Assembly (NCBI GenBank): GCA_045652205.1
Contig: JAZRTX010000012.1
Coordinates: 605 to 64,604 of the forward strand
Direction: 5' to 3'
DNA length: 64,000 nt
Source: Clostridia bacterium
GTDB taxonomy: Bacteria; Bacillota; Clostridia; Christensenellales; QALW01
The notes under the pieces were generated by a model. It did no database searches. It saw only the letters and a program-made list of their open reading frames with translations, and had not been told where the DNA came from. A program made the translations under genes and the position numbers. Shown here piece by piece: positions 3,448-49,500 of the stretch; the first letter of the stretch is position 1; each line of letters opens with the position of its first letter.

Positions 3448-5202
3448 TTATTTATTTGCTTTTTTCTTTTTAACAATAATTACTACTGCTGTGGTTGCAG
3501 CCGCTAAAACAACCGCACCGCCAATGATAAAGTACAAAGTGTAATTACCTTTAACTTCAACGTTTTGTGGATCGTCAACACCGCCAACTTGTGAAGTTGT
3601 TTCCGGTGCATCGGTAGCACTTACATTTGGTGTTGTTGCTTCGGTTGAAGTGGGCGTCTGCGTTGGTGCAGGTGTTGGTACAGGGGTTGGTGTTGCAATC
3701 CCTGCTTCTTCTAAGGAAGCGTATATTTTAGTAAGTTTAAACGCAACGCTGGGCAATTCGGTACTGCTACCTAAATTAGCAACGTATTGTAAATCGCCCT
3801 TGCCTTCGGGATAATCAACGAATGCCAATAATTCAAGGCCGTAACCAATTTCTTTTACGTTGCCTTTGGTTTTAATTAAAACTTCATTTTTACTGATAAT
3901 TTCTGCCTGGGTTGCTTTTTCGTTTAACCAGAATCCTGAAAGTGTTTTGTGCTGACCTATTACTTTAAGACCATCGCCAACGTTTTTGAATCTGATAACT
4001 ACGCCCTGGTCAGTTTTATATGCAAATTCAGGCATTGGTGAAGTTACGTAATTTTCATCTCCAATATTGTAAAGGCGTGCTAATGCAAGGTTTGCAAGGC
4101 GCTCGCCAACAGGTTTCTTATAGTTAGGATGTGCCCAATCGCTATCTTTTTTGCGATAGCCCTGATCCATTGAAACAACCATTCCTGAGTTTTTGATAAC
4201 CTTTAATCCATCAAACTGAACTGCACGTTGCTGACCTGTACCTTTCCAATCAGATACGGTATGTGAAGAAAGCTGAACGTAATAAAATGGGAAATCCTGA
4301 TCCATTTTATCTCTTATATCTTCAACGTAAACGTTAAGGTATTCATTATATTTTCCGTAATCAGTCAATGCAAGACCGTTTTCACTTTCGCCCTGATAAT
4401 ATATCATACCTTTAATTTTAGTATTGATAAACGGGGACATAAGCGCATTATAAATACCGGATGCAGGAATATCCTTACTGCCTTTAACGTAGCCTGACTT
4501 CTGACCGGCTTCCTTGCTCATAAGCTCGCTTACAGGTGAACCGCCACAGGAAACGTTGATTACACCAACAGGTACGCCTGTTTCCTTATTTATCTTATGT
4601 GCAAAGAAAAAGCCAAGGGCAGAAAACTTTTTAGCAACCTGATAAGTTTCCTTTTCCCACTTTTTGCCCGGTATAACGTCCTTTTGCGGTTCAGTCATGT
4701 ATTTGCCTGCTTCCGTCATTGCATCGGCTTTTGCCTGTTGGAAATAACGGATCTGACCGTTAGCCTCACTTACAATATCCTTGATTTCATTGATTTTGTA
4801 TGCGGCATCGCAATTGTTTAATAATTTTGCGGCGTTGGACTGACCGTTTAAAATATAAACGTCACCAACCAAAATGCCTGTACGGGTTTCGGTATAATCA
4901 CCCATTTTGACAGTAAGAGTGTTTTCGTTTTTATCTGCCGCCATTTTAGGTAATTTTACAAGCCAGTTTCCGTTATCATCAACCTTGCCCGTAACGGTGT
5001 TACCTTTAAAAGAAACGGTGATGGTTTCGCCTTTTTTATTGCTCCAACCCCAAATGTTAACTTCTGTATCCCTTTGAAGTACCATATCGTTACCGATAGC
5101 GCCTGATATAGTAAAGGGTGCCTGCGTTTGTGCAGAAACAAAAACAGCAGTTGAGCTAATCACCATTATTACAATAAGAACAACTGAAAAAATTTTTTGC
5201 AT
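3448..5202 (-). CDS. Surface-anchored sialate O-acetylesterase-like (SASA) carbohydrate esterase
   Basis: Signal peptide, DMVLQR, GQSN, YYQGES, HPNYKKPVGERLA; Pro/Thr linker, C-terminal TM and KKKK. Confidence 0.85.
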   Translation of the reverse strand: MQKIFSVVLIVIMVISSTAVFVSAQTQAPFTISGAIGNDMVLQRDTEVNIWGWSNKKGETITVSFKGNTVTGKVDDNGNWLVKLPKMAADKNENTLTVKMGDYTETRTGILVGDVYILNGQSNAAKLLNNCDAAYKINEIKDIVSEANGQIRYFQQAKADAMTEAGKYMTEPQKDVIPGKKWEKETYQVAKKFSALGFFFAHKINKETGVPVGVINVSCGGSPVSELMSKEAGQKSGYVKGSKDIPASGIYNALMSPFINTKIKGMIYYQGESENGLALTDYGKYNEYLNVYVEDIRDKMDQDFPFYYVQLSSHTVSDWKGTGQQRAVQFDGLKVIKNSGMVVSMDQGYRKKDSDWAHPNYKKPVGERLANLALARLYNIGDENYVTSPMPEFAYKTDQGVVIRFKNVGDGLKVIGQHKTLSGFWLNEKATQAEIISKNEVLIKTKGNVKEIGYGLELLAFVDYPEGKGDLQYVANLGSSTELPSVAFKLTKIYASLEEAGIATPTPVPTPAPTQTPTSTEATTPNVSATDAPETTSQVGGVDDPQNVEVKGNYTLYFIIGGAVVLAAATTAVVIIVKKKKANK

Positions 5203-39869: not shown

Positions 39870-40024
39870 AAAAAGATTTTTTATACAGCACAAAAGATTA
39901 ACTAAAGTTAGTTAGTCTTTTATTTTTTAATCTGTAACGGTTGATTTTTTTATTTACGTATGATATAATTAAACAAAATTTGCGGCGTGCTGCAAATTTA
40001 ATATTGAAACGGAGTTTTAATGAA

Positions 40025-40984
40025 ATGAACTTAAAATGTGCTTCCTTTTTTGCAGGCGTCGGCGGAATAGACAAAGGATTTGAATTAGCCGGATTTGAAA
40101 CGATTTTTGCCAATGAATTTGATCTAAACGCTTCCATTACATATAAAGCAAATTTCCCAAATGTTGAATTTGCTTTGAGCGATATCCGCAATTTAGATGA
40201 AAAAAAAGATATTCCTGATTTTGACATTATGCTTGCAGGTTTTCCTTGTCAAGCATTCTCCGTTGCGGGATATAGGCAAGGCTTTAATGACGAAAAAGGA
40301 CGAGGTAATTTGTTTTTTGAGCTTGCGCGTATTATTGAAGCAAAAAAACCTAAAGTGGTTTTTCTTGAAAATGTTAAAAACCTTGTTTCACACGACAACG
40401 GAAATACTTTTACTGTTATTAGTGAAACATTGGAAAAATTAGGATATTATATAAAACCGTTTGTACTGAACGCTTGTAATTATGGTAATATACCGCAAAC
40501 ACGGGAAAGGATTTATATTGTTTGTTTCAGGAACAAAGAGCATTATAGAAATTTCGAACACCTAAAACCTATAAAACTAGAAAAGACTCTCGCTGACTTA
40601 ATTGATTTTGAAAACAGACAAGATGACAAATATTATTATACAGAAAAATGTAATTTTTACGATAAGCTCGTTGAAGGTATTACAAAATCTGATACATGCT
40701 ATCAATGGCGCAGAGTTTACGTTAGAGAAAACAAAAGTAAAATGTGCCCAACACTCACAGCAAATATGGGAACAGGCGGGCACAATGTTCCTTTGATTAA
40801 AATGTACAATGGGGATATTAGAAAGCTAACGCCGAGAGAATGTTTTAACTTGCAAGGGTTTCCATGTGATTTTATTTTACCTGATAGTCTTTGTAATGGC
40901 GCATTATACAAACAGGCAGGTAATTCAGTAGTTGTAAGCGTAATACACAGAATTGCCGAAGAAATAAAAAATGCAATAAAATAA
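40025..40984 (+). CDS. DNA cytosine-C5 methyltransferase
   Basis: FAGVGG, GFPCQ, ENVKNL, QTRERIY, PTLTA, YKQAGNSV. Confidence 0.96.
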   Translation: MNLKCASFFAGVGGIDKGFELAGFETIFANEFDLNASITYKANFPNVEFALSDIRNLDEKKDIPDFDIMLAGFPCQAFSVAGYRQGFNDEKGRGNLFFELARIIEAKKPKVVFLENVKNLVSHDNGNTFTVISETLEKLGYYIKPFVLNACNYGNIPQTRERIYIVCFRNKEHYRNFEHLKPIKLEKTLADLIDFENRQDDKYYYTEKCNFYDKLVEGITKSDTCYQWRRVYVRENKSKMCPTLTANMGTGGHNVPLIKMYNGDIRKLTPRECFNLQGFPCDFILPDSLCNGALYKQAGNSVVVSVIHRIAEEIKNAIK

Positions 40985-41013: not shown

Positions 41014-42162
41014 CTATTCTTCATCCAAAACTTCTTTTCTGGCAAATTTCTCATAGGTTCCCACTTCGGCAAAATCAACCGAATATCTTGATTCTCCAAG
41101 TTTTGTAAAAACAACACAATCAATGCCAAAGATTTTAAGCATTTCATATGTTAAAAGCGTTTTTTCTGGCAATTCAAACACTTTTCGCAATAACCACTCA
41201 CCCAAAACTTTATTGGGATTGCTCATTATTGCCTTGTTGTCTTGTTGACACACCTTTGCCGAAATTATAGTTCCATCTGGTAGCAACAACTCAAAATTTT
41301 GGTCACGATTCGGAAAAAATCCTGCATATCTTTCTCTATCTTCGGCCGGAAATGGAATGTAGATTTCGTTTGCATTCCTTTTTCTGCCACTTGCATTCCA
41401 TTGATTTAAGCCACTTTTGGGTGCAACAAATTTTGTGCCGTTGGGTTTTGTAGAATACAAACGCAAACAAGCCTTATTTGTTGTATCAAAACTACCTTCT
41501 TGATTTGTAACGCTTTGAGTAATATTTTCCGCTAAACCCATCAAATAAATGTAGGGGTCATCAAGTATATCTACTGTAAACGAATCTAAAAGCTCCATAT
41601 CATCAAAAATCATATAGAGAGTATTTTTTGACATGCTAAAATGATAAACGTGTTTCCCATCGGTAAAATACGTGTTATTTATATTGCCACGTTCGGGTAA
41701 TAAAGTTATGTTTTCAATATCTATAGGCTCAAAAACATGTTCAAATATTTGCATCGTATTAGGAATACGTTTAACTATATGATAAATAAGATTATCTATG
41801 CCGTGTAAATTCTTTGTTATGCGAATACGTTCATTTCTAAATTCCGAAACTTTTTTTGCCAAATCTAGACCTGTTAATAGGCTTAACTTTTCTCTCAAAC
41901 TGTCAAACTCTGCAACCTTTTGATCATTATTTCCCATCCAAGTTTTTAAACCTACGCCTATTTTACCTTTTTTAGCATCGGCAGAACAATCGCTACGAGA
42001 TAAATTTTCGGCATCAAAGTATTTACAAAAAACATTTTCTTGAACTCTATATGGTAAGTAAGGACAAGCATTATCTGAAAATAAGCGTGTTAATTTACCA
42101 ATTATACCAAGCATTTGTTTATACTGTTGTTTTTGTTCTTCAGATTGCAAATCGTAAAACAT
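41014..42162 (-). CDS. Putative restriction endonuclease, NgoFVII-like C-terminal DNA-binding domain
   Basis: Adjacent to MTase; N-terminal EN...D...GLKT nuclease-like motif; KSGLNQWN...GRKR..EIYIP. Confidence 0.72.
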   Translation of the reverse strand: MFYDLQSEEQKQQYKQMLGIIGKLTRLFSDNACPYLPYRVQENVFCKYFDAENLSRSDCSADAKKGKIGVGLKTWMGNNDQKVAEFDSLREKLSLLTGLDLAKKVSEFRNERIRITKNLHGIDNLIYHIVKRIPNTMQIFEHVFEPIDIENITLLPERGNINNTYFTDGKHVYHFSMSKNTLYMIFDDMELLDSFTVDILDDPYIYLMGLAENITQSVTNQEGSFDTTNKACLRLYSTKPNGTKFVAPKSGLNQWNASGRKRNANEIYIPFPAEDRERYAGFFPNRDQNFELLLPDGTIISAKVCQQDNKAIMSNPNKVLGEWLLRKVFELPEKTLLTYEMLKIFGIDCVVFTKLGESRYSVDFAEVGTYEKFARKEVLDEE

Positions 42163-42465: not shown

Positions 42466-43668
42466 TCAAAGTTCTATTATGCGGATGCTTGAAAGCAGAT
42501 TAAGCTTTTCAAACTTTGCAAAATGATTTTTGTTTATATCTTTTTCTAATATTGCGCCGATAATGCCGTTTTCGTTATAAACGATATCTGCATCGGGATA
42601 AAGGTTTAAAACATCTTCCTTAGAACTATCTGTTCTGATATACCAGGGTGAATAAAGTTCTTCCTGCTTTAAAACACTGCCCGGAATTTCATCCTGCCAG
42701 CCCCAGCCTTTAAGGAATTCAAAATGCTTGGCGGCATCTAAAATATCTGCAACAACTGCGCTTGCGGTGGGCAGTTTACCTGCGCCGCGGCCCGAAAGAA
42801 ATACGTCGCCTACTGCGTTACCCTGTAAAAGCACGCTGTTAAAAACGTCCTTTACCCCTGAAAGCAAGCTATCGTGGGGAACAAGTGCAGGTGCAACCAT
42901 TACTTTTTTGTTTTTGCCGTAATTTTCGCCCTGACCGATTAACTTAATTGAAAATCCGCATTCATCTGCAATAGCAACGTCTTCTAAAGAAATCTTTGTA
43001 ATGCCTTCTGCGTAAACATCCTTTGGATAAACGTGATTGCCAAAGGCAAGAGATGCTAAAATGCACATTTTTCTACAAGCGTCAATACCTTCAACGTCAG
43101 CAGTAGGGTCGGCTTCAGCATAGCCTAATTCTTGGGCGTTTTTTAAAGCATCAGAAAACGCAACGTTTTCTTCAATCATCTTTGTTAAAATATAGTTTGT
43201 TGTGCCGTTTAATATGCCAAAAAACTTTGTAATTTCGTTTGCAGCCATACAACGATGCATTGGGCGGATTAACGGAATACCACCGCCAACGCTCGCTTCA
43301 AAGAAATAGTTTACGTTGTTCGCTTTTGCTAATTCTAAAAGTTCATAACCCTTTTGGGCAACAAGCTCTTTATTGCTTGTTACAACGCTTTTACCTGCTT
43401 TTAAAGCGCGAACGGTGTAATCATAGGCAAAGGTTGCGCCACCGATAACTTCTGCAACCACTTTAATATCAGGGTCGTTTTCAATGATAGAAAAATCCTT
43501 TACAAACTTATCCTTATAAGGACTGTTCGGAAAATCCCTAATATCAAGAATATATTTAACGTTAAGTTGGTTTTCAAGCTTTGATGCGATATGTTCTTTA
43601 TTCATATCAATAAGTTCAACAACGCCTGAACCCACTGTACCGAATCCTAAAACTGCAACGTTTATCAT
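42466..43668 (-). CDS. hom: Homoserine dehydrogenase
   Basis: GFGTVGSG, VVTSNK, EASVGGGIP, NGTTNYIL, GAGKLPTASA. Confidence 0.96.
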   Translation of the reverse strand: MINVAVLGFGTVGSGVVELIDMNKEHIASKLENQLNVKYILDIRDFPNSPYKDKFVKDFSIIENDPDIKVVAEVIGGATFAYDYTVRALKAGKSVVTSNKELVAQKGYELLELAKANNVNYFFEASVGGGIPLIRPMHRCMAANEITKFFGILNGTTNYILTKMIEENVAFSDALKNAQELGYAEADPTADVEGIDACRKMCILASLAFGNHVYPKDVYAEGITKISLEDVAIADECGFSIKLIGQGENYGKNKKVMVAPALVPHDSLLSGVKDVFNSVLLQGNAVGDVFLSGRGAGKLPTASAVVADILDAAKHFEFLKGWGWQDEIPGSVLKQEELYSPWYIRTDSSKEDVLNLYPDADIVYNENGIIGAILEKDINKNHFAKFEKLNLLSSIRIIEL

Positions 43669-43819
43669 TTAAAAAATCCTTTCAAACTTTGTATATTTAT
43701 ATTTTATGATATATTTTAATTTATGGCAAGTGTTTTAAATGATATTTAGGTTAAAAAAACAAAATATAACAAAAACAGGCGCATAAATAAGCTACACCTG
43801 TTTTTTATTAAATAGCGAT

Positions 43820-43995
43820 CTACCACTCAAGCCATTCCATATCTGATTCCACTTCCCAAAAAAATGGATTTCAAAAGAATATATTTGGTCATTAGTGTTA
43901 TATATCAAACCCTAAAAAATATTTTGTTCCGTTATACATAATAGTTTCCTATTAAAAAGTTATTATATCAATAAATCCTGATCTCCATTTATCAT
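43820..43995 (-). pseudogene. Decayed homolog of the adjacent immunity-like gene
   Basis: MINGD, frameshift, FIDIITF**ETIMYNGTKYFLG ... FWEVESDMEWLEW*, echoing both ends of 44013-44330. Confidence 0.55.
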
Positions 43996-44012
43996 TTTAT
44001 AATCGCCACCGA

Positions 44013-44330
44013 TTAGGAATATTCTATTACAATTTCATTTTCAATATCATAAAAAGATTTATTATCAAAAATTAGGGCTTTGAGAAAAGATTCAATGCTT
44101 TCATTTCCATCTTCCATTCTTTTTGAATAAACCTCTTCCCAAGTTTTTGGTTCGGCTTTTTGTTCATAAAATGGTTGGTCAGATTTAATTACTTCAATAA
44201 TGTGATATTTAGGTGTAGAATTTATTTCCCAACCACAATTTATCATATAATACCAATTATTAAAATGCAATTCTATATCAGCACCGTAATACAACTTGTC
44301 GTACAACTCATTAAATGTTAATCCTTTCAC
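44013..44330 (-). CDS. Small acidic/aromatic protein, putative immunity protein
   Basis: GTG 2 nt after the toxin-like gene stop; 105 aa, rich in E/Y/F/W. Confidence 0.6.
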   Translation of the reverse strand: MKGLTFNELYDKLYYGADIELHFNNWYYMINCGWEINSTPKYHIIEVIKSDQPFYEQKAEPKTWEEVYSKRMEDGNESIESFLKALIFDNKSFYDIENEIVIEYS

Positions 44331-44332
44331 AA

Positions 44333-44698
44333 TTAGCGCCCCCTAAAAAATTTCTTGTATTTTTTATATTCATCATCGGTTAGTGTTCGCCCAAGAGGGT
44401 CACGTATTCCATTATTATATTCGTGAATATGAAAAATGGGATTATAATGACCAGATATTTTTCTTTCCGGGTGATAATCAATGTCAAATTTAGAAGTATG
44501 ATTAGAGTTAAATTCACGGAATCTCACAAAATTTCCTGCACTGTCTGTTAAGATATAGGCATTACTACTGTGTGATTCTTCCGGTAAATTATGCTTACCA
44601 CCTAATCCTTGAAGGACCTTTACGCCATCAATTTTTTCCACGGTTTCATAACTATATGGAACAGAATTACCGCTTGCAAATGTTCCTCTGCCACCCAT
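44333..44698 (-). CDS. MGGRG-headed protein with putative Ntox24-like nuclease domain
   Basis: SD AAAGGTGG; ATG 1 nt after the DUF4417 stop; RxF...DIDY-H...H...HIHEY...R..LT motif. Confidence 0.6.
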   Translation of the reverse strand: MGGRGTFASGNSVPYSYETVEKIDGVKVLQGLGGKHNLPEESHSSNAYILTDSAGNFVRFREFNSNHTSKFDIDYHPERKISGHYNPIFHIHEYNNGIRDPLGRTLTDDEYKKYKKFFRGR

Positions 44699-44699
44699 A

Positions 44700-45323
44700 T
44701 TAGCGCACCACCTTTCGTGATGCCATATAATCAACGGCGATTATATTTCCTTGCATTTCGGGAAATGGCGAACCAAAACATATTATTTTTGAAGGCTGGA
44801 TTCTTTTTAGCATTTCGTTATAGCCACGCATAAAATGGAGTTTTGATTGTTTGCACCCAATCATACCTACCGCTACAATACTGCCTTGCTCAATGCCGTC
44901 AAAGCAAAATTCAAAACTGCGAGCATCGCTCCAACTGACTGTTGGGATTACAGTTTTTCCTTTGCTTTGCCAATAAGCACCTACCCAACGATTTTTTGCA
45001 ACACTTTCAAGCTGACGCCAAAAATCCATATCTGCATAGGTGGAGAAGTCAGGTGAAAGTAAGAATGCATACTGTGAATATCTTTCTAAGGTTCTTTCAG
45101 GATTATCATAAATCCCATTGAAACGATAATCATCAACAAAAAAGTGAACGCCTTTTTTCTTATTTTCTTCATTATCGTTTGCTCTTGTGTCAGAGCACGC
45201 CACCAACATAATATCATTGGTGGAAAGCTCTTGCTTTTTGATAAGAGGGATGCCCCACTTACCGACTGAATCAAAATTGTTACGCATAAATAGAGGGTTA
45301 TCCCTCATTGATTTACTGGTCAT
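44700..45323 (-). CDS. DUF4417-like protein
   Basis: VHFFVDDYRF, SPDFSTYAD, NRWVGAYWQ, VIPTVSW, FCFDGI. Confidence 0.85.
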   Translation of the reverse strand: MTSKSMRDNPLFMRNNFDSVGKWGIPLIKKQELSTNDIMLVACSDTRANDNEENKKKGVHFFVDDYRFNGIYDNPERTLERYSQYAFLLSPDFSTYADMDFWRQLESVAKNRWVGAYWQSKGKTVIPTVSWSDARSFEFCFDGIEQGSIVAVGMIGCKQSKLHFMRGYNEMLKRIQPSKIICFGSPFPEMQGNIIAVDYMASRKVVR

Positions 45324-45343
45324 ATTATTACACCTCCGAAAAA

Positions 45344-45532
45344 TTATTTGTTTTTTTGCATAACATTTTTGCAGCAGAAAGTTCTACATTTTGTGCGATT
45401 TCTGTTGCATTTTTCTCCGGAATGTGCTAATATGTACTTACCAAGGTACGAATGGCAACATTCGGAGAGAAGCACTGTATTGATTGCGGGAACAATCTTT
45501 ACGGTGTTTTCTTTTTGTCTTGTAACAAGCAA
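45344..45532 (-). CDS. Possible 62-aa leader ORF spanning the structured leader
   Basis: AAGGCGGTGA SD-like sequence before TTG; could be a by-product of the RNA structure. Confidence 0.3.
   Translation of the reverse strand: MLVTRQKENTVKIVPAINTVLLSECCHSYLGKYILAHSGEKCNRNRTKCRTFCCKNVMQKNK
45440..45516 (+). ncRNA. Predicted antisense RNA
   Basis: TTGCAT-17-TAATAT promoter (45405-45433); GCAA-tetraloop hairpin; long terminator hairpin plus T-run. Confidence 0.55.
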
Positions 45533-45558
45533 ATTATATCACCGCCTTTTCTTTAATA

Positions 45559-46083
45559 TTAATATTTTAAGCGTTTATCGGCCGCAGCTTTTGAAACACC
45601 AAAACTATTCATAAGTTCTTTTGCTGACATTCCGACAGTTACATCATAAGGCATCATAACCTCTCCAGCAAGAGCCATTACGACCCATTCAAGTCTTCTG
45701 TATGGGGGAACATCCTTTGTTAAACGCCTTGAAAAAATAGGTTTAAATCCGAGTTTATCAGCAAATACGTGCATAATTTCATGCATTATGTGCATACGGT
45801 GACCACCCGTGCCTTTTTCATAGGCTCCACTATATACAGAGTCTTTTATTTGAATCAAATATCCATCTGCGTTTATTTCACATTGCGCAGGTACATTACC
45901 GGGAAGCTTATCGTTATATACTATTTCATATCTTACATCTTCAAAGCCATCAAGGTCAGGCAATTTATCAAGAAGTACGATAGGGTCAATAGGCTCGTCA
46001 ACAGAAAGACCACAAATCGCCCTAAAAAACTTTGCGCAATGACGCAATTCGTTTCTGCTTGTGGGTCTAATCTCGTAATCCAT
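45559..46083 (-). CDS. ImmA/IrrE family zinc metallopeptidase
   Basis: RMHIMHEIMH (HExxH), LEW...LAGEVMMP, FGVSKAAA; TGATG overlap with the HTH gene. Confidence 0.85.
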   Translation of the reverse strand: MDYEIRPTSRNELRHCAKFFRAICGLSVDEPIDPIVLLDKLPDLDGFEDVRYEIVYNDKLPGNVPAQCEINADGYLIQIKDSVYSGAYEKGTGGHRMHIMHEIMHVFADKLGFKPIFSRRLTKDVPPYRRLEWVVMALAGEVMMPYDVTVGMSAKELMNSFGVSKAAADKRLKY

Positions 46084-46445
46084 CAATCGTCCTCCTTGTT
46101 AAGAAGTTTCATAATGGCGGTCGCTGTATCATCGTCAAGTTTTTCAAACGAACGTTGAAACTGTACTGCCAATCTACGTTGAGTATTGTTAGTAGATACC
46201 AGGTTGATTTTTACCTGAGTTTTTGACTGTTCAACAGCTTCGTATAAATCCGCTTCTTCTTCTGCGTTTAAATTGTAATGTTCAATAAGAATGGGAATCC
46301 ATTCATCTGGAACATTCCTTTTTCCTCTTTCAACTGTGGATACAAAAGGAATTTTTACATCAAATAATTTTGCTGTATCACCCATAACCTCGTGATTTTT
46401 TACTCTCTGTATTCTCATAAATTCTCCAAACTTCGTATAACTCAC
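46083..46445 (-). CDS. XRE-family HTH regulator
   Basis: TKFGEFMRIQR...TAKLFDV...FVSTVERGKRNVP; GTG start with SD. Confidence 0.85.
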   Translation of the reverse strand: MSYTKFGEFMRIQRVKNHEVMGDTAKLFDVKIPFVSTVERGKRNVPDEWIPILIEHYNLNAEEEADLYEAVEQSKTQVKINLVSTNNTQRRLAVQFQRSFEKLDDDTATAIMKLLNKEDD

Positions 46446-46470
46446 ATTCTTCACCCTTTCTTTCCAATTA

Positions 46471-46526
46471 ATTATATCACCATTTAAACCAAAAGTCAAT
46501 AATTAATTTAATCATTTTTTGATTAA
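46471..46526 (-). promoter_or_regulatory. SigA promoter with adjacent palindromic candidate operator
   Basis: TTGACT-17-TATAAT (46499-46471); TTAATCA-N5-TGATTAA at 46508-46526. Confidence 0.65.
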
Positions 46527-46539
46527 CTTAATACATAAC

Positions 46540-46571
46540 AAAACACCGCAAGAATTTTCTTGCGGTGTTTA
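46540..46571 (-). terminator. rpoC terminator
   Basis: AAAACACCGCAAGAA/TTCTTGCGGTGTTTT. Confidence 0.85.
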
Positions 46572-46577
46572 TTTTTA

Positions 46578-49500
46578 TTATGCGTTTACTGCTTCAGCTT
46601 CAACAGTTTCTTCTGAAAGTGCTTCAACTTCTGCTTCTGCATTTTTGCGGATAACGTTAATATCAATATCCTTATATCTCTTTACGCCTGTACCTGCAGG
46701 GATAAGCTTACCGATACATACGCATTCTTTAAGACCAAGAAGCGGGTCAATCTTGCCCTTAATAGCGGCATCTGTAAGAACCCTTGTGGTTTCCTGGAAG
46801 GATGCGGCTGAAAGGAATGATTCAGTTGCAAGGGCAGCCTTTGTAATACCAAGAAGGATTCTACGGCTTGTAGCAGGAATACCGCCTGCAAGACGGGTTT
46901 CCTCGTTAACCTTTTCAACCTTAAAGATATCAACAACGTCGCCGGGAAGAAGATCAGTATCGCCCGCATCTTCAATACGAACTTTACGAAGCATCTGGCG
47001 AACAATTAACTCAATATGCTTATCAGCAATATCAACGCCCTGTACCTTATAAACAGTCTGAACCTCTTTGAGCATATAATCCTGAAGTGGAACTACACCC
47101 TTAATTTTAAGTAAATCGTGGGGGTTTACTGAACCCTTTGTAAGCTCCTGACCAACTTCAACCTGCTGACCTTCTTCAACAGCAAGGTGAGCATTGTAAG
47201 GAAGGGGATAGTTCTTTTCTTCGCCATCAGAGGTAACGATGCTTACGCTACCCTTACCGCGAATATTGTTAACTTCAACCTTACCTGAAACGTCAGAAAG
47301 AATTGCAAGTCCTTTTGGCTTACGTGCTTCAAAGATTTCTTCAACACGGGGAAGACCCTGTGTAATATCTGTACCTGCAACACCACCGGTGTGGAAGGTT
47401 CTCATTGTAAGCTGAGTACCGGGTTCACCGATTGACTGTGCTGCGATAATACCAACAGCTTCACCGATAGCAACGGGCTTATTGTTTGAAAGGTCAGCAC
47501 CGTAGCACTTAGCGCAAACACCGTGTTCGCAACGACAGGTGAAGATTGAACGGATCATAACCTTTGTTCTGCCTAAGCCACCCTTTTCTTTGGGAAGGGT
47601 AATCTTATCAGCAATTTCATCGGTTACTAATGTACCGTCAGTAAACACAACGTTGCCGTTTTCGTCTACAATATCTTCAGCAAGTGTTCTGTTCTTGATA
47701 CGTTCTGCAACGGTTTCAATAACTGAACCATCGTGAATAATATCTTCAACGTAAACACCGTTAGGTGTGTTGATTGATGAATGATTCTGATGGCAATCTT
47801 CTTCACGAACGATAACGTCCTGACAAACGTCAACAAGACGTCTTGTAAGGTAACCGGAGTCAGCTGTACGGAGAGCCGTATCAGCAAGACCTTTACGTGT
47901 TCCGTGTGAAGACATGAAGAAGTCAATAATTGTAAGACCTTCACGGAAGTTTGCCTTAACGGGAATTTCAATAGTTCTACCTGATGGGTCAGCCATCAAG
48001 CCACGCATACCTGCAAGCTGTGTAATCTGTGATTTGTTACCACGAGCACCGGATACAGCCATCATGTTGATGGGGTTGAACTTATCAAGACCGTTCATAA
48101 GCTGAACTGTAACGTCGTCCTTGGCGATACGCCAGGTATCAATAACTGCACGGTATCTTTCTTCTTCGGAATAGAATCCGCGTTTTGCCAAATCGTTGAT
48201 TTTTGCAACGTGCGCATCTGCTTTTTCAAGGATTTCCTTTTTAGCCTTAGGAATAACAGCATCCTTAACACCAACGGTAATTGCACCGCGGGTTGCATAC
48301 TGGAAGCCCTGTGCCTTAATAGCGTCAAGCATCTGTGCAGTAATTGCTTCACCGTGAACGGTGTAGCACTTATAAACAACCTTGTTAAGTGATTTCTTAT
48401 CAATTAAGAAGCCGATTTCAAGGTCAAATTCGTGTTCGGGATCGTTTCTGTCAACAAAGCCGATATCCTGTGGAACTGCGCGGTTAAAGATAATCTTACC
48501 AACGGTTGTCTGAATAATCTTTGAACGTGTTACACCGTTTTCGTCAGTCTTTGACATACGAACGTTTGTCATTGACTGTAAGCCAAGATTGCCCATTTCG
48601 TAAGCAAGAACTGCTTCTTCAGGTGAAGAGAAAGTTCTGTCTAACGCAGGCTTATCATCGCGAACGATAGTAAGATAGTATGAACCGATAATCATATCCT
48701 GTGTGGGTACAACTACGGGTCTGCCGTCAGCAGGTTTAAGAATATTGTTTTCAGCAAGCATTAAGAAACGTGCTTCAGCCTGTGCTTCTACTGAAAGTGG
48801 AACGTGGCAGGGCATCTGGTCGCCGTCAAAGTCAGCGTTAAATGCGGTACAAACCAATGGGTGTAATTTAATTGCACGGCCATCAACAAGTACAGGTTCA
48901 AATGCCTGGATACCAAGGCGGTGAAGTGTAGGAGCACGGTTTAAAAGAACGGGATGACCCTGAATAACTTCTTCTAAAACGTCCCAAACCTCAGCAGTAC
49001 CTCTTTCAATAAGACGCTTTGCGCCACGGATATTCTGTGCAAGGTTTAATTCAACAAGGCGCTTCATAACGAAGGGCTTGAAAAGTTCAATAGCCATTTC
49101 CTTAGGAAGACCGCACTGATGCATTTTAAGTTCAGGACCAACAACGATAACTGAACGGCCTGAATAGTCAACACGCTTACCTAAAAGGTTCTGACGGAAA
49201 CGACCCTGCTTACCGCGAAGCATATCTGAAAGTGATTTTAACGGACGGTTGCCGGGGCCTGTAACAGGGCGACCGCGGCGGCCGTTATCAATTAAAGCGT
49301 CAACAGCTTCCTGAAGCATACGCTTTTCGTTTCTGATAATAATATCAGGTGCGCTTAATTCAAGAAGGCGTTTAAGACGGTTGTTACGGTTAATTACACG
49401 GCGATAAAGATCGTTAAGATCACTTGAAGCAAATCTGCCGCCATCAAGCTGTACCATGGGGCGAATTTCCGGTGGGATAACAGGAACAACGTCCATAATC

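Follow-up and report, generated by a model that had tools for sequence, protein, structure and literature searches.

Within a 64,000-nucleotide stretch of the Clostridia bacterium contig JAZRTX010000012.1 (the window, to whose positions all coordinates refer), a cassette carried entirely on the minus strand couples a gene of the uncharacterised Pfam family DUF4417 to a gene whose 121-residue product begins Met-Gly-Gly-Arg-Gly, and the same pairing recurs in loci from phages and other bacteria. We propose that DUF4417 is a dedicated partner of proteins with a free Gly-Gly-Arg-Gly (GGRG) N-terminus, probably an enzyme or, failing that, at least a specific receptor, a reading to which we give roughly even chances. 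That GGRG is a tag linked to DUF4417 is strongly supported, because the two are adjacent, because they are transferred together into varied genomic flanks, and because residues 1-13 of the tagged protein are disordered in its predicted structure. A preliminary description of the window had proposed this tie, and in this respect it stands; five phage loci in which GGRG lies behind a cleavable leader add to it.

The association was counted in loci from 20 viral contigs, 80 species-representative genomes, three phage records and relatives of the window's own genome, 107 of which hold at least 15 nt beyond the DUF4417 stop codon and were scored for a same-strand start between -200 and +100 nt. An MGG[RK]G start is adjacent to DUF4417 in 96 of these 107 loci (viral 15/20, genome 76/78, phage records 3/3, relatives 2/6), and the modal spacing between the DUF4417 stop and the tag is a single base (62 loci). 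The 80 genome loci are close kin of the window cassette (64-92% identity in DUF4417) and represent a single lineage, the more independent sample being that of the viral loci, at 33-44% identity. A second viral sample, drawn by profile and partly overlapping the first, gave the strict ATG-initiated MGG[RK]G in 56 of 79 loci. Across all six frames of 109 loci (679 kb) there are 105 matches to the peptide, 96 of them adjacent to DUF4417, eight farther downstream on the same strand in tandem arrays, one upstream and none on the opposite strand. In the window's own genome of 1,680,969 bases, MGG[RK]G follows just one of 46,474 ATG codons in six frames, that of the tagged gene, and a profile search finds a single copy of DUF4417. 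The family is widespread, with phage homologues in at least 493 sequenced phage records, including the laboratory phages L5 and A25. That DUF4417 genes are often followed by MGGRG starts, with unrelated C-termini behind them, had been stated in the preliminary description, and this is borne out: the 96 tagged proteins fall, beyond residue 35, into 12 unlinked clusters.

The tag is conserved at the level of protein, as codons 2-5 vary synonymously (GGC, GGT or GGA for Gly; AGA, CGC or CGT for Arg). Moreover, the same peptide is present in GC-rich mycobacteriophages as well as in AT-rich clostridial DNA. In the window, transcription runs from a gene for an XRE-type helix-turn-helix (HTH) protein through those for an ImmA-type peptidase, DUF4417 (after a 235-nt gap), the 121-aa tagged protein and a 105-aa protein. 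On the minus strand the DUF4417 TAA (44702-44700) is followed by one base and then by ATG 44698, and the Shine-Dalgarno (SD) element AAAGGTGGTG occupies -17 to -8 of that ATG, within the final DUF4417 codons. For TTG 44734, the start given by the open reading frame track, the nearest SD-like element is just AAGGA, some 15 nt away. We take ATG 44698 as the true start because relatives of the 121-aa protein begin MGG[RK]G, as do 116 of 120 homologues among the matches listed (371 were found); the start that had been picked from the letters of the window is therefore right. The 105-aa gene starts 2 nt past the tagged-gene stop and is preceded by AGGGGG, and in the window the DUF4417, tagged and immunity-like genes are translationally coupled. 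Among sequencing runs compared with the window, one DNA run contains 0.69 of the sampled words and may be its source, the shares of all other runs being small. Contigs from RNA library X20 that are 80-96% alike cover DUF4417, the leader and the regulator genes; as these contigs derive from relatives, and as DNA may be present in the library, we do not take them as expression.

Of the new arguments for use of the N-terminus itself, the strongest comes from five phage loci (L167, L212, L216, L198 and L155), described here for the first time, in which the motif (N/D)(L/I)Q(F/L)F stands immediately before GGRG. The N-terminal extension of ribosomal protein L27 in Firmicutes is cut by the protease Prp after its last Phe, and capsid and scaffold proteins of phage 80alpha are also Prp-cleaved (PMC9405229). 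The five phage leaders match this L27/Prp-type motif (e.g., NLQFF|GGRG), and cleavage of that type would expose exactly a GGRG N-terminus. Because GGRG sits behind cleavable leaders, a free GGRG N-terminus seems to be the required feature. The wider family of the 121-aa protein numbers 421 representatives at E <= 0.001; the starts read for the best 150 of these were MGGRG in 65, MSSRG in 11, MGSRG in seven, MGGNG in five and MASRG in three, the others being mainly fragments or miscalled starts. The variants MSSRG, MGSRG and MASRG retain a small second residue. By each of these routes a small residue, in most cases as part of GGRG, comes to stand at a free N-terminus.

Other arrangements of the tag were noted in phage genomes. 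A 254-267-aa protein follows a ParB-DUF4417 fusion in three loci (L002, 3597-4370; L003, 3563-4324; L013, 2304-3104) and consists of a domain of about 72 residues, GGRG with a Gly-rich linker, and a metalloprotease-like motif, HxHx7Sx2D, which we take to be a JAMM signature; the protein may process itself and thereby expose GGRG. Pfam (E <= 0.01) finds no family in these three proteins other than a weak HicA_toxin match in L013 (E 0.0048, 17.4 bits against a cut-off of 27). In Mycobacterium phage L5 (NC_001335.1), where gene 1 is DUF4417 and is annotated as "nuclease", an MGGRG frame of 112 codons (1081-1419) overlaps the end of gene 1, and the annotated gene 2 (1305-2084) lies in a different frame. 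Two L5-related phage contigs (L010 and L012) have a single 292-aa MGGRG protein at that place, and this, with the MGGRG frame, suggests that L5 gene 2 is probably misannotated or frameshifted in a Gly-rich stretch. In Streptococcus phage A25 (NC_028697.1), gp23 is annotated from position 4013. Translation from an in-frame ATG 27 nt before that position would overlap gp22, the DUF4417 gene, at its end and yield a protein (3986-4396) beginning MGGRGASSG; we suggest this upstream start as the real one because the tag is conserved.

The DUF4417 protein of the window matches its Pfam profile (PF14386) with 181.1 bits against a cut-off of 28.9, residues 18-199 aligning to profile positions 2-182 of 183, and a Pfam scan returns DUF4417 alone, with no PF01702 (tRNA-guanine transglycosylase, TGT). 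Among 34 sequences reaching down to 34% identity, the invariant polar or Cys residues are H60, D65, D92, S94, C140 and D142, and F68, P75, P91, G115, G122, V125, P127, W131, F139, F141, G143, V150, G167 and P177 are likewise invariant. The D/H motifs that had been singled out as enzyme-like from the sequence (HFFVDDYRF and SPDFS) are real and conserved. The AlphaFold model (predicted local distance difference test, pLDDT, 90.1; predicted template modelling score, pTM, 0.87) is a seven-stranded alpha/beta barrel of reduced TIM type, whose invariant polar residues are placed immediately past strands 58-60 and 87-89 and within the loop leading into strand 149-153. In TIM barrels the face after the beta-strands is the catalytic face. 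A structural search of 48,161 chains placed archaeosine TGT first (ArcTGT, 1iq8; Z 10.6, root-mean-square deviation (rmsd) 3.1, 169 residues aligned), followed by QTRT2 (6fv5; Z 10.3), DpdA (7ui4; Z 10.0) and TGT (3unt; Z 8.9), and in Foldseek the TGT and DpdA matches had E of about 0.016-0.04, with TMq 0.37-0.50 for TGT. The invariant His, Asp and Ser after the beta-strands, together with the transglycosylase-like barrel, make it plausible that DUF4417 is an enzyme. A tie to DNA is suggested by the fusions of ParB_N to DUF4417 in three loci (L014, L018 and L019); a survey of the ParB-CTPase fold found ParB-DUF4417 fusions to be enriched in phages (10.1101/2025.10.10.680097). Among the five cassette proteins, DUF4417 alone has PHROGs matches (phrog_940, "nuclease", and phrog_8680), and the label of phrog_940 probably derives from the ParB fusions.

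The proteins that bear the tag are varied. Gln_amidase is a papain-fold glutamine deamidase toxin, and in a Pfam scan of 13 tagged representatives, three of which scored over cut-off, Gln_amidase (PF15644) was found in L008 and L015 (47.1 and 45.3 bits) and the RNase domain PBECR3 (PF18812) in L014 (36.3 bits); others among the representatives show HExxH motifs and weak, zincin-like peptidase matches. PBECR domains have been proposed to be packaged by phages and injected, and solo versions of them have been noted (PMC5512222). The window's 121-aa protein falls in the most populous cluster (75 of 96), and its profile matches that of the phage A25 gp23 family (hhalign 95.6%, E 1.3e-8, 106 columns including the tag; the gp23 alignment comprises six correct rows and one erroneous row of 11 residues). 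In its model (pLDDT 83.8), residues 1-13 are disordered (pLDDT < 50), the first strand begins at residue 17 and the body is rich in beta structure; conserved positions are H43, S45, R61, Y75, H76, E78, H90, H92, Y94 and R104. Ntox24, offered by the Atlas for a neighbouring cluster (22% of members, score 0.90), was rejected as a name for this protein, as it was absent from Pfam scans at E <= 1 of all 39 members of the A2 alignment, which gave no consistent family.

The 105-aa protein that follows has no Pfam, PHROG, PADLOC or NCBIfam match and no Atlas name, and its type (cluster 1) comprises 92 proteins from 72 loci, each locus having one to three copies and every copy following the tagged gene. 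Over 69 loci, median identity to the window falls from 75% in DUF4417 through 71% in tag residues 1-35 and 43% in the tagged body to 27% in the downstream protein; for the closest locus the corresponding values are 92, 77, 43 and 24%. Tandem arrays also occur, with three pairs of tagged and small genes in L046 and two in L031, and L061 carries two successive units of DUF4417, tagged and small gene. In L082, L094 and L098 an A25-type protein and a different small gene occupy that place. Gradient and arrays together resemble the pattern of polymorphic toxins and their immunity proteins, which suggests that the tagged protein may be toxic and the downstream protein protective. One 223-aa protein (P0156) joins tagged and immunity-like proteins in a single frame, as a fusion or a read-through call.

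The cassette (Table 1) is a 2.78-kb insertion, as two same-genus genomes (G011 and G006) have the empty site, with flanks 90-93% identical; there the rpoC end either overlaps the homoserine dehydrogenase gene or is separated from it by about 15 bp. DUF4417 was found in five of 41 genomes searched, including the window's own, and in two of 20 other genomes of the genus. The 80 related loci show the order regulator pair (in some a Fic gene instead), DUF4417, tagged gene and one to three small-gene copies, amid unrelated flanks; nucleotide homology between cassettes ends upstream at 46524-46534 and downstream within codons 28-49 of the tagged gene. The insertion holds no recombinase gene, and a search for terminal repeats found only an A-rich similarity near both junctions. 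At its boundary, between the rpoC end and the cassette, a 13-bp stem that pairs perfectly and is flanked by T runs on either side (46541-46570) resembles a bidirectional terminator and is present at the empty site of relatives too. One housekeeping gene away from the cassette are genes for a C-5 cytosine DNA methyltransferase (39941-40984, plus strand, E 9.1e-91) and for a protein whose C-terminal DNA-binding domain is of NgoFVII type (41014-42162, minus strand), likely a type II restriction-modification pair.

Table 1. Features of the DUF4417 cassette, in window positions.
Feature	Position	Strand	Basis or remark
Inserted cassette	43748..46530	-	~2.78 kb between rpoC end and homoserine dehydrogenase gene
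XRE-type HTH regulator gene	46083..46499	-	HTH_31 15.5 bits, below cut-off; cluster HTHb
ImmA/IrrE-type zinc peptidase gene (HEIMH)	45559..46086	-	Peptidase_M78 24.7 bits (cut-off 22)
Leader, ~200 nt, within 235-nt gap	45324..45558	-	Alignment, consensus fold
DUF4417 gene, 207 aa	44700..45323	-	PF14386, E 1.9e-53
Tagged protein gene, 121 aa, MGGRG start	44333..44698	-	Homologues, model
Immunity-like protein gene, 105 aa	44013..44330	-	Recurrent cluster 1 gene after tagged gene

Upstream, the order of an XRE-type HTH gene and a gene for an M78 (HExxH) peptidase is that of an ImmR/ImmA-type pair, and in the window the ImmA-type gene overlaps the HTH gene by 4 nt. Related cassettes carry either an HTHb regulator (21 loci) upstream of ImmA or an HTHa regulator with a different M78 peptidase (c7), the alternative pair of sister cassettes scoring 59 bits for M78 and 45.8 bits for HTH_3. 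In seven loci (L031, at 81.6 bits, L039, L049, L067, L075, L088 and L099) a Fic/DOC gene replaces the HTH/ImmA pair. The listed TTG is probably too early a start for the HTH gene, as the promoter scan places a strong promoter-like site (TTGACT-17-TATAAT, 46499-46471) over the first codons. A second promoter-like site (45562-45533) lies ahead of the DUF4417 leader. The leader is conserved across cassettes, nucleotide homology reaching as far as 45515-45566 also where the regulator pair is the alternative one. Its consensus fold from 13 sequences has 30 pairs, six with changes on both sides, and predicts two hairpins (5 of 18 pairs changed on both sides) and a long-range pairing over the ribosome-binding site. 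The region 43600-46700 has no Rfam match at E <= 1, and the leader (45324-45545) could be an unnamed cis-regulatory RNA or an operator.

What DUF4417 might do with the tag is suggested by type IV CBASS (cyclic oligonucleotide-based antiphage signalling systems), in which the QueC-like Cap9 puts 7-amido-7-deazaguanine on Gly2 of CdnD once Met is removed, and the TGT-fold Cap10 has the modified Gly-rich CdnD tail bound within its active site, ready to be transferred to a target as yet unknown (10.1101/2025.04.06.647259). The CdnD N-terminal peptide begins GGSGG, the residue roles given for Cap10/QTRT1 are a catalytic Asp nucleophile and an Asp and Ser that read the base, and the Cap10-CdnD structure as reported captures tail binding, transfer not being demonstrated (10.1101/2025.04.06.647259). 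By this analogy, and given the ParB fusions, DUF4417 might modify the tag or attach the tagged protein to DNA or a nucleobase, and it is on these two grounds that the corresponding part of the preliminary description continues to rest.

The proposed course of events would begin with methionine aminopeptidase, which removes Met before Gly and would thus strip Met1 ahead of Gly2. The flexible tail of 13-16 residues may then enter the catalytic face of the DUF4417 barrel, where DUF4417 might link its alpha-amine to a nucleobase or a nucleic-acid sugar in the manner of a transglycosylase, as the likeness to Cap10/CdnD and DpdA suggests, and this coupling would load or arm the tagged protein. In the window that protein would be an effector of the same remote family as A25 gp23, and the product of the downstream gene would neutralise it in the producer, as the divergence gradient and the tandem arrays suggest. 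In phages, the DUF4417-tag module adjoins terminase and portal genes; co-delivery of effectors with DNA is its likely purpose there, and the phage version may tether effectors to the DNA being packaged. We favour DUF4417 itself as the protein that would engage the alpha-amine because the module has no QueC-like gene and the genome no full QueC. An N-terminal amine attacks DNA C1' in Fpg/Nei and T4 endonuclease V, and an N-terminal Cys in HMCES/YedK. In its most explicit form, which we advance tentatively and think rather unlikely in full, the proposal is that DUF4417 is a cut-down transglycosylase that swaps a DNA or RNA base for the GGRG alpha-amine, directly or through a nucleobase adaptor, and so covalently tethers effectors for packaging and injection, the window cassette being its free-living counterpart, in which XRE/ImmA and the leader RNA control the arming of a single effector. 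What the data show is the association, the tag with its need to be N-terminal, the class of fold, and a cassette that is mobile; that DUF4417 binds the tail, what chemistry it performs, and that toxicity and immunity are involved are inferences.

Several observations weigh against DUF4417 as a tag-directed enzyme. Generic and designed TIM barrels come a small margin below the TGT matches to the DUF4417 model, a designed one reaching Z 8.7, and Foldseek returns no match for the model at E <= 0.001. Alignment of the family by hhalign to 19 TGTs (drawn from 24 loci in the window's own genome and its order, five being dropped by a 340-470-aa filter) gave a probability of 0.2% over 15 columns, and an hmmsearch of the DUF4417 alignment against all Protein Data Bank sequences gave no match at E <= 10. 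TGT structures have a C-terminal zinc-binding subdomain. DUF4417 is too short for one, the model stopping at residue 207, where it aligns to TGT chain residues up to about 253-283, with no Cys cluster after the barrel. As for a conserved counterpart of the TGT nucleophile, D198 is lost in phage forms. As sequence link and zinc subdomain are lacking, the TGT enzyme class is a reasoned lead rather than a membership. An enzyme for deazaguanylation of the Cap9 type is not visible, as the cassette has no QueC-like gene and the window's own genome (89.8% complete, with a normal TGT) has no full QueC, showing only partial PP-loop matches, within longer proteins, to positions 2-64 and 1-51 of the 210 in the QueC profile. 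Further, the strict tag is missing in 11 of the 107 loci. Exceptions in the two sets include near-variants (MGRGS, MGSRG, MGGRD, MGTGY, MAKG... and a GTG start before GGRG) and a broken copy with MGGRA, and a few loci (e.g., L001 and L157, and L147 and L207 from the second set) have no tag-like start at all. Gene adjacency by itself is no proof of contact between DUF4417 and tagged protein. With respect to the effector, the 121-aa protein has no Pfam family and its body no convincing fold match (best Z 4.8, to OspB/OspA fragments; Foldseek E 0.2), and no immunity-like gene follows those of its phage relatives, A25 gp23 for example; for want of a toxin family or fold and of that gene, the 121-aa protein may be no toxin.

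Among the alternatives, the biological role of the cassette may be that of a stand-alone defence or addiction module, not of a delivery device, consisting of toxin, antidote and activating or licensing enzyme and turned on by XRE/ImmA upon phage infection or DNA damage. The two kinds of HTH and M78 peptidase pairs that precede it, the fastest divergence being that of the downstream gene, the chromosomal location with an empty site in relatives and the nearby restriction-modification pair would all fit such a module. However, no PADLOC model matches any of the five proteins, and phage DUF4417-tag pairs lie among late and packaging genes without regulators or an immunity-like gene; we think this rather unlikely. 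DUF4417 might instead be a non-catalytic adaptor or chaperone that hands the GGRG protein to a phage head, portal or secretion route. QTRT2 is a TGT paralogue without catalysis, yet its score (Z 10.3) is on a par with those of the catalytic members, the reported Cap10-CdnD structure shows tail binding only, and the neighbouring terminase and portal genes of phage modules suit such a hand-over. Yet residues His, Asp and Ser that remain invariant at the catalytic face over 34-92% identity imply chemistry or very specific ligand binding, and the chromosomal cassette, in a genome with one DUF4417 and one tag, lacks phage structural genes, so that we consider an adaptor improbable.

Our doubts are greater over a third alternative, in which DUF4417 is a base-exchange or glycosylase enzyme of DNA or RNA with no action on the tagged protein, the tag is read by a host protease, an N-end rule factor or a capsid, and adjacency reflects a shared operon. 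DpdA is among the best fold matches (Z 10.0), the ParB_N fusions resemble those of DNA methyltransferases in the published survey, and some ParB-DUF4417 genes have no simple tag after them. This would leave unexplained the spacing of about one base in 62 loci, adjacency in 96 of 107, the near-complete absence of the tag elsewhere in the 679 kb of loci and in the window's own genome, and the joint movement of the pair in a cassette that offers no other candidate for reading the tag. Finally, that the conserved start is a nucleic-acid feature (for translational coupling or recombination) rather than a protein tag is very improbable, since, for all that the start is G-rich, lies 1 nt past the upstream stop and is soon followed by the break in nucleotide homology between cassettes, its Gly and Arg codons vary, the peptide persists from GC-rich mycobacteriophages to AT-rich clostridial DNA, and GGRG can also follow a cleavable leader or a 72-aa domain.

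Should DUF4417 prove to act on a four-residue N-terminal tag, phages and mobile cassettes would have a new means of marking, loading or delivering many unrelated effectors, and the action of the transglycosylase fold on protein N-termini, a recent finding, would extend beyond one defence system. The proposal also offers testable functions for an uncharacterised Pfam family and for several misannotated phage genes, and a short portable tag read by a small enzyme could serve as a tool.

As far as we found, the pairing, present across hundreds of phages, has apparently not been described in print: text searches of the literature, subscription journals and supplements lying outside their scope, returned no description of DUF4417 with GGRG, and neither the accessible part of the ParB-CTPase survey (10.1101/2025.10.10.680097) nor that of a published table of phage A25 genes gives a function for DUF4417; the family is also named in connection with a termite phage genome, and a search for related transglycosylase work brought up papers on CBASS and Dpd only. 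PADLOC and NCBIfam match none of the five cassette proteins. The closest parallel is Cap10 and CdnD, where a TGT-type barrel also stands beside a partner with a flexible Gly-Gly tail after Met removal, and where the barrel engages the tail rather than the body. Unlike type IV CBASS, the cassette has no CD-NTase and no QueC-like Cap9 (Pfam, PADLOC and NCBIfam, five proteins); DUF4417, at 207 aa, is half the size of Cap10 (37.4 kDa) and has many unrelated partners where Cap10 has one. In structure the DUF4417 model comes closest to DpdA (PDB 7UI4) and the TGTs (Z 10.0-10.6, with 160-169 residues aligned at an rmsd of 3.1-3.5), but DUF4417 shares no detectable sequence homology with them and lacks their zinc subdomain, and in contrast to the Dpd system it has no DpdB-type ATPase or deazaguanine synthesis genes nearby. 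The five phage loci resemble the Prp substrates L27 and those of 80alpha in the (N/D)(L/I)Q(F/L)F that precedes GGRG, and differ in that the residue after the cut is Gly rather than Ala or Ser (PMC9405229); the window lacks the leader form, and there removal of Met would suffice. Finally, in common with polymorphic toxins and MuF effectors, a constant N-terminal element precedes unrelated effectors, followed by small, fast-evolving downstream genes and spare cassettes in tandem (PMC3482391; PMC5512222). Unlike MuF, LXG or PAAR, the constant element is not a trafficking domain, and no secretion or head-protein domain is fused to it; rather than the domain typical of polymorphic toxins, it comprises four or five residues and a separate gene for a candidate enzyme.

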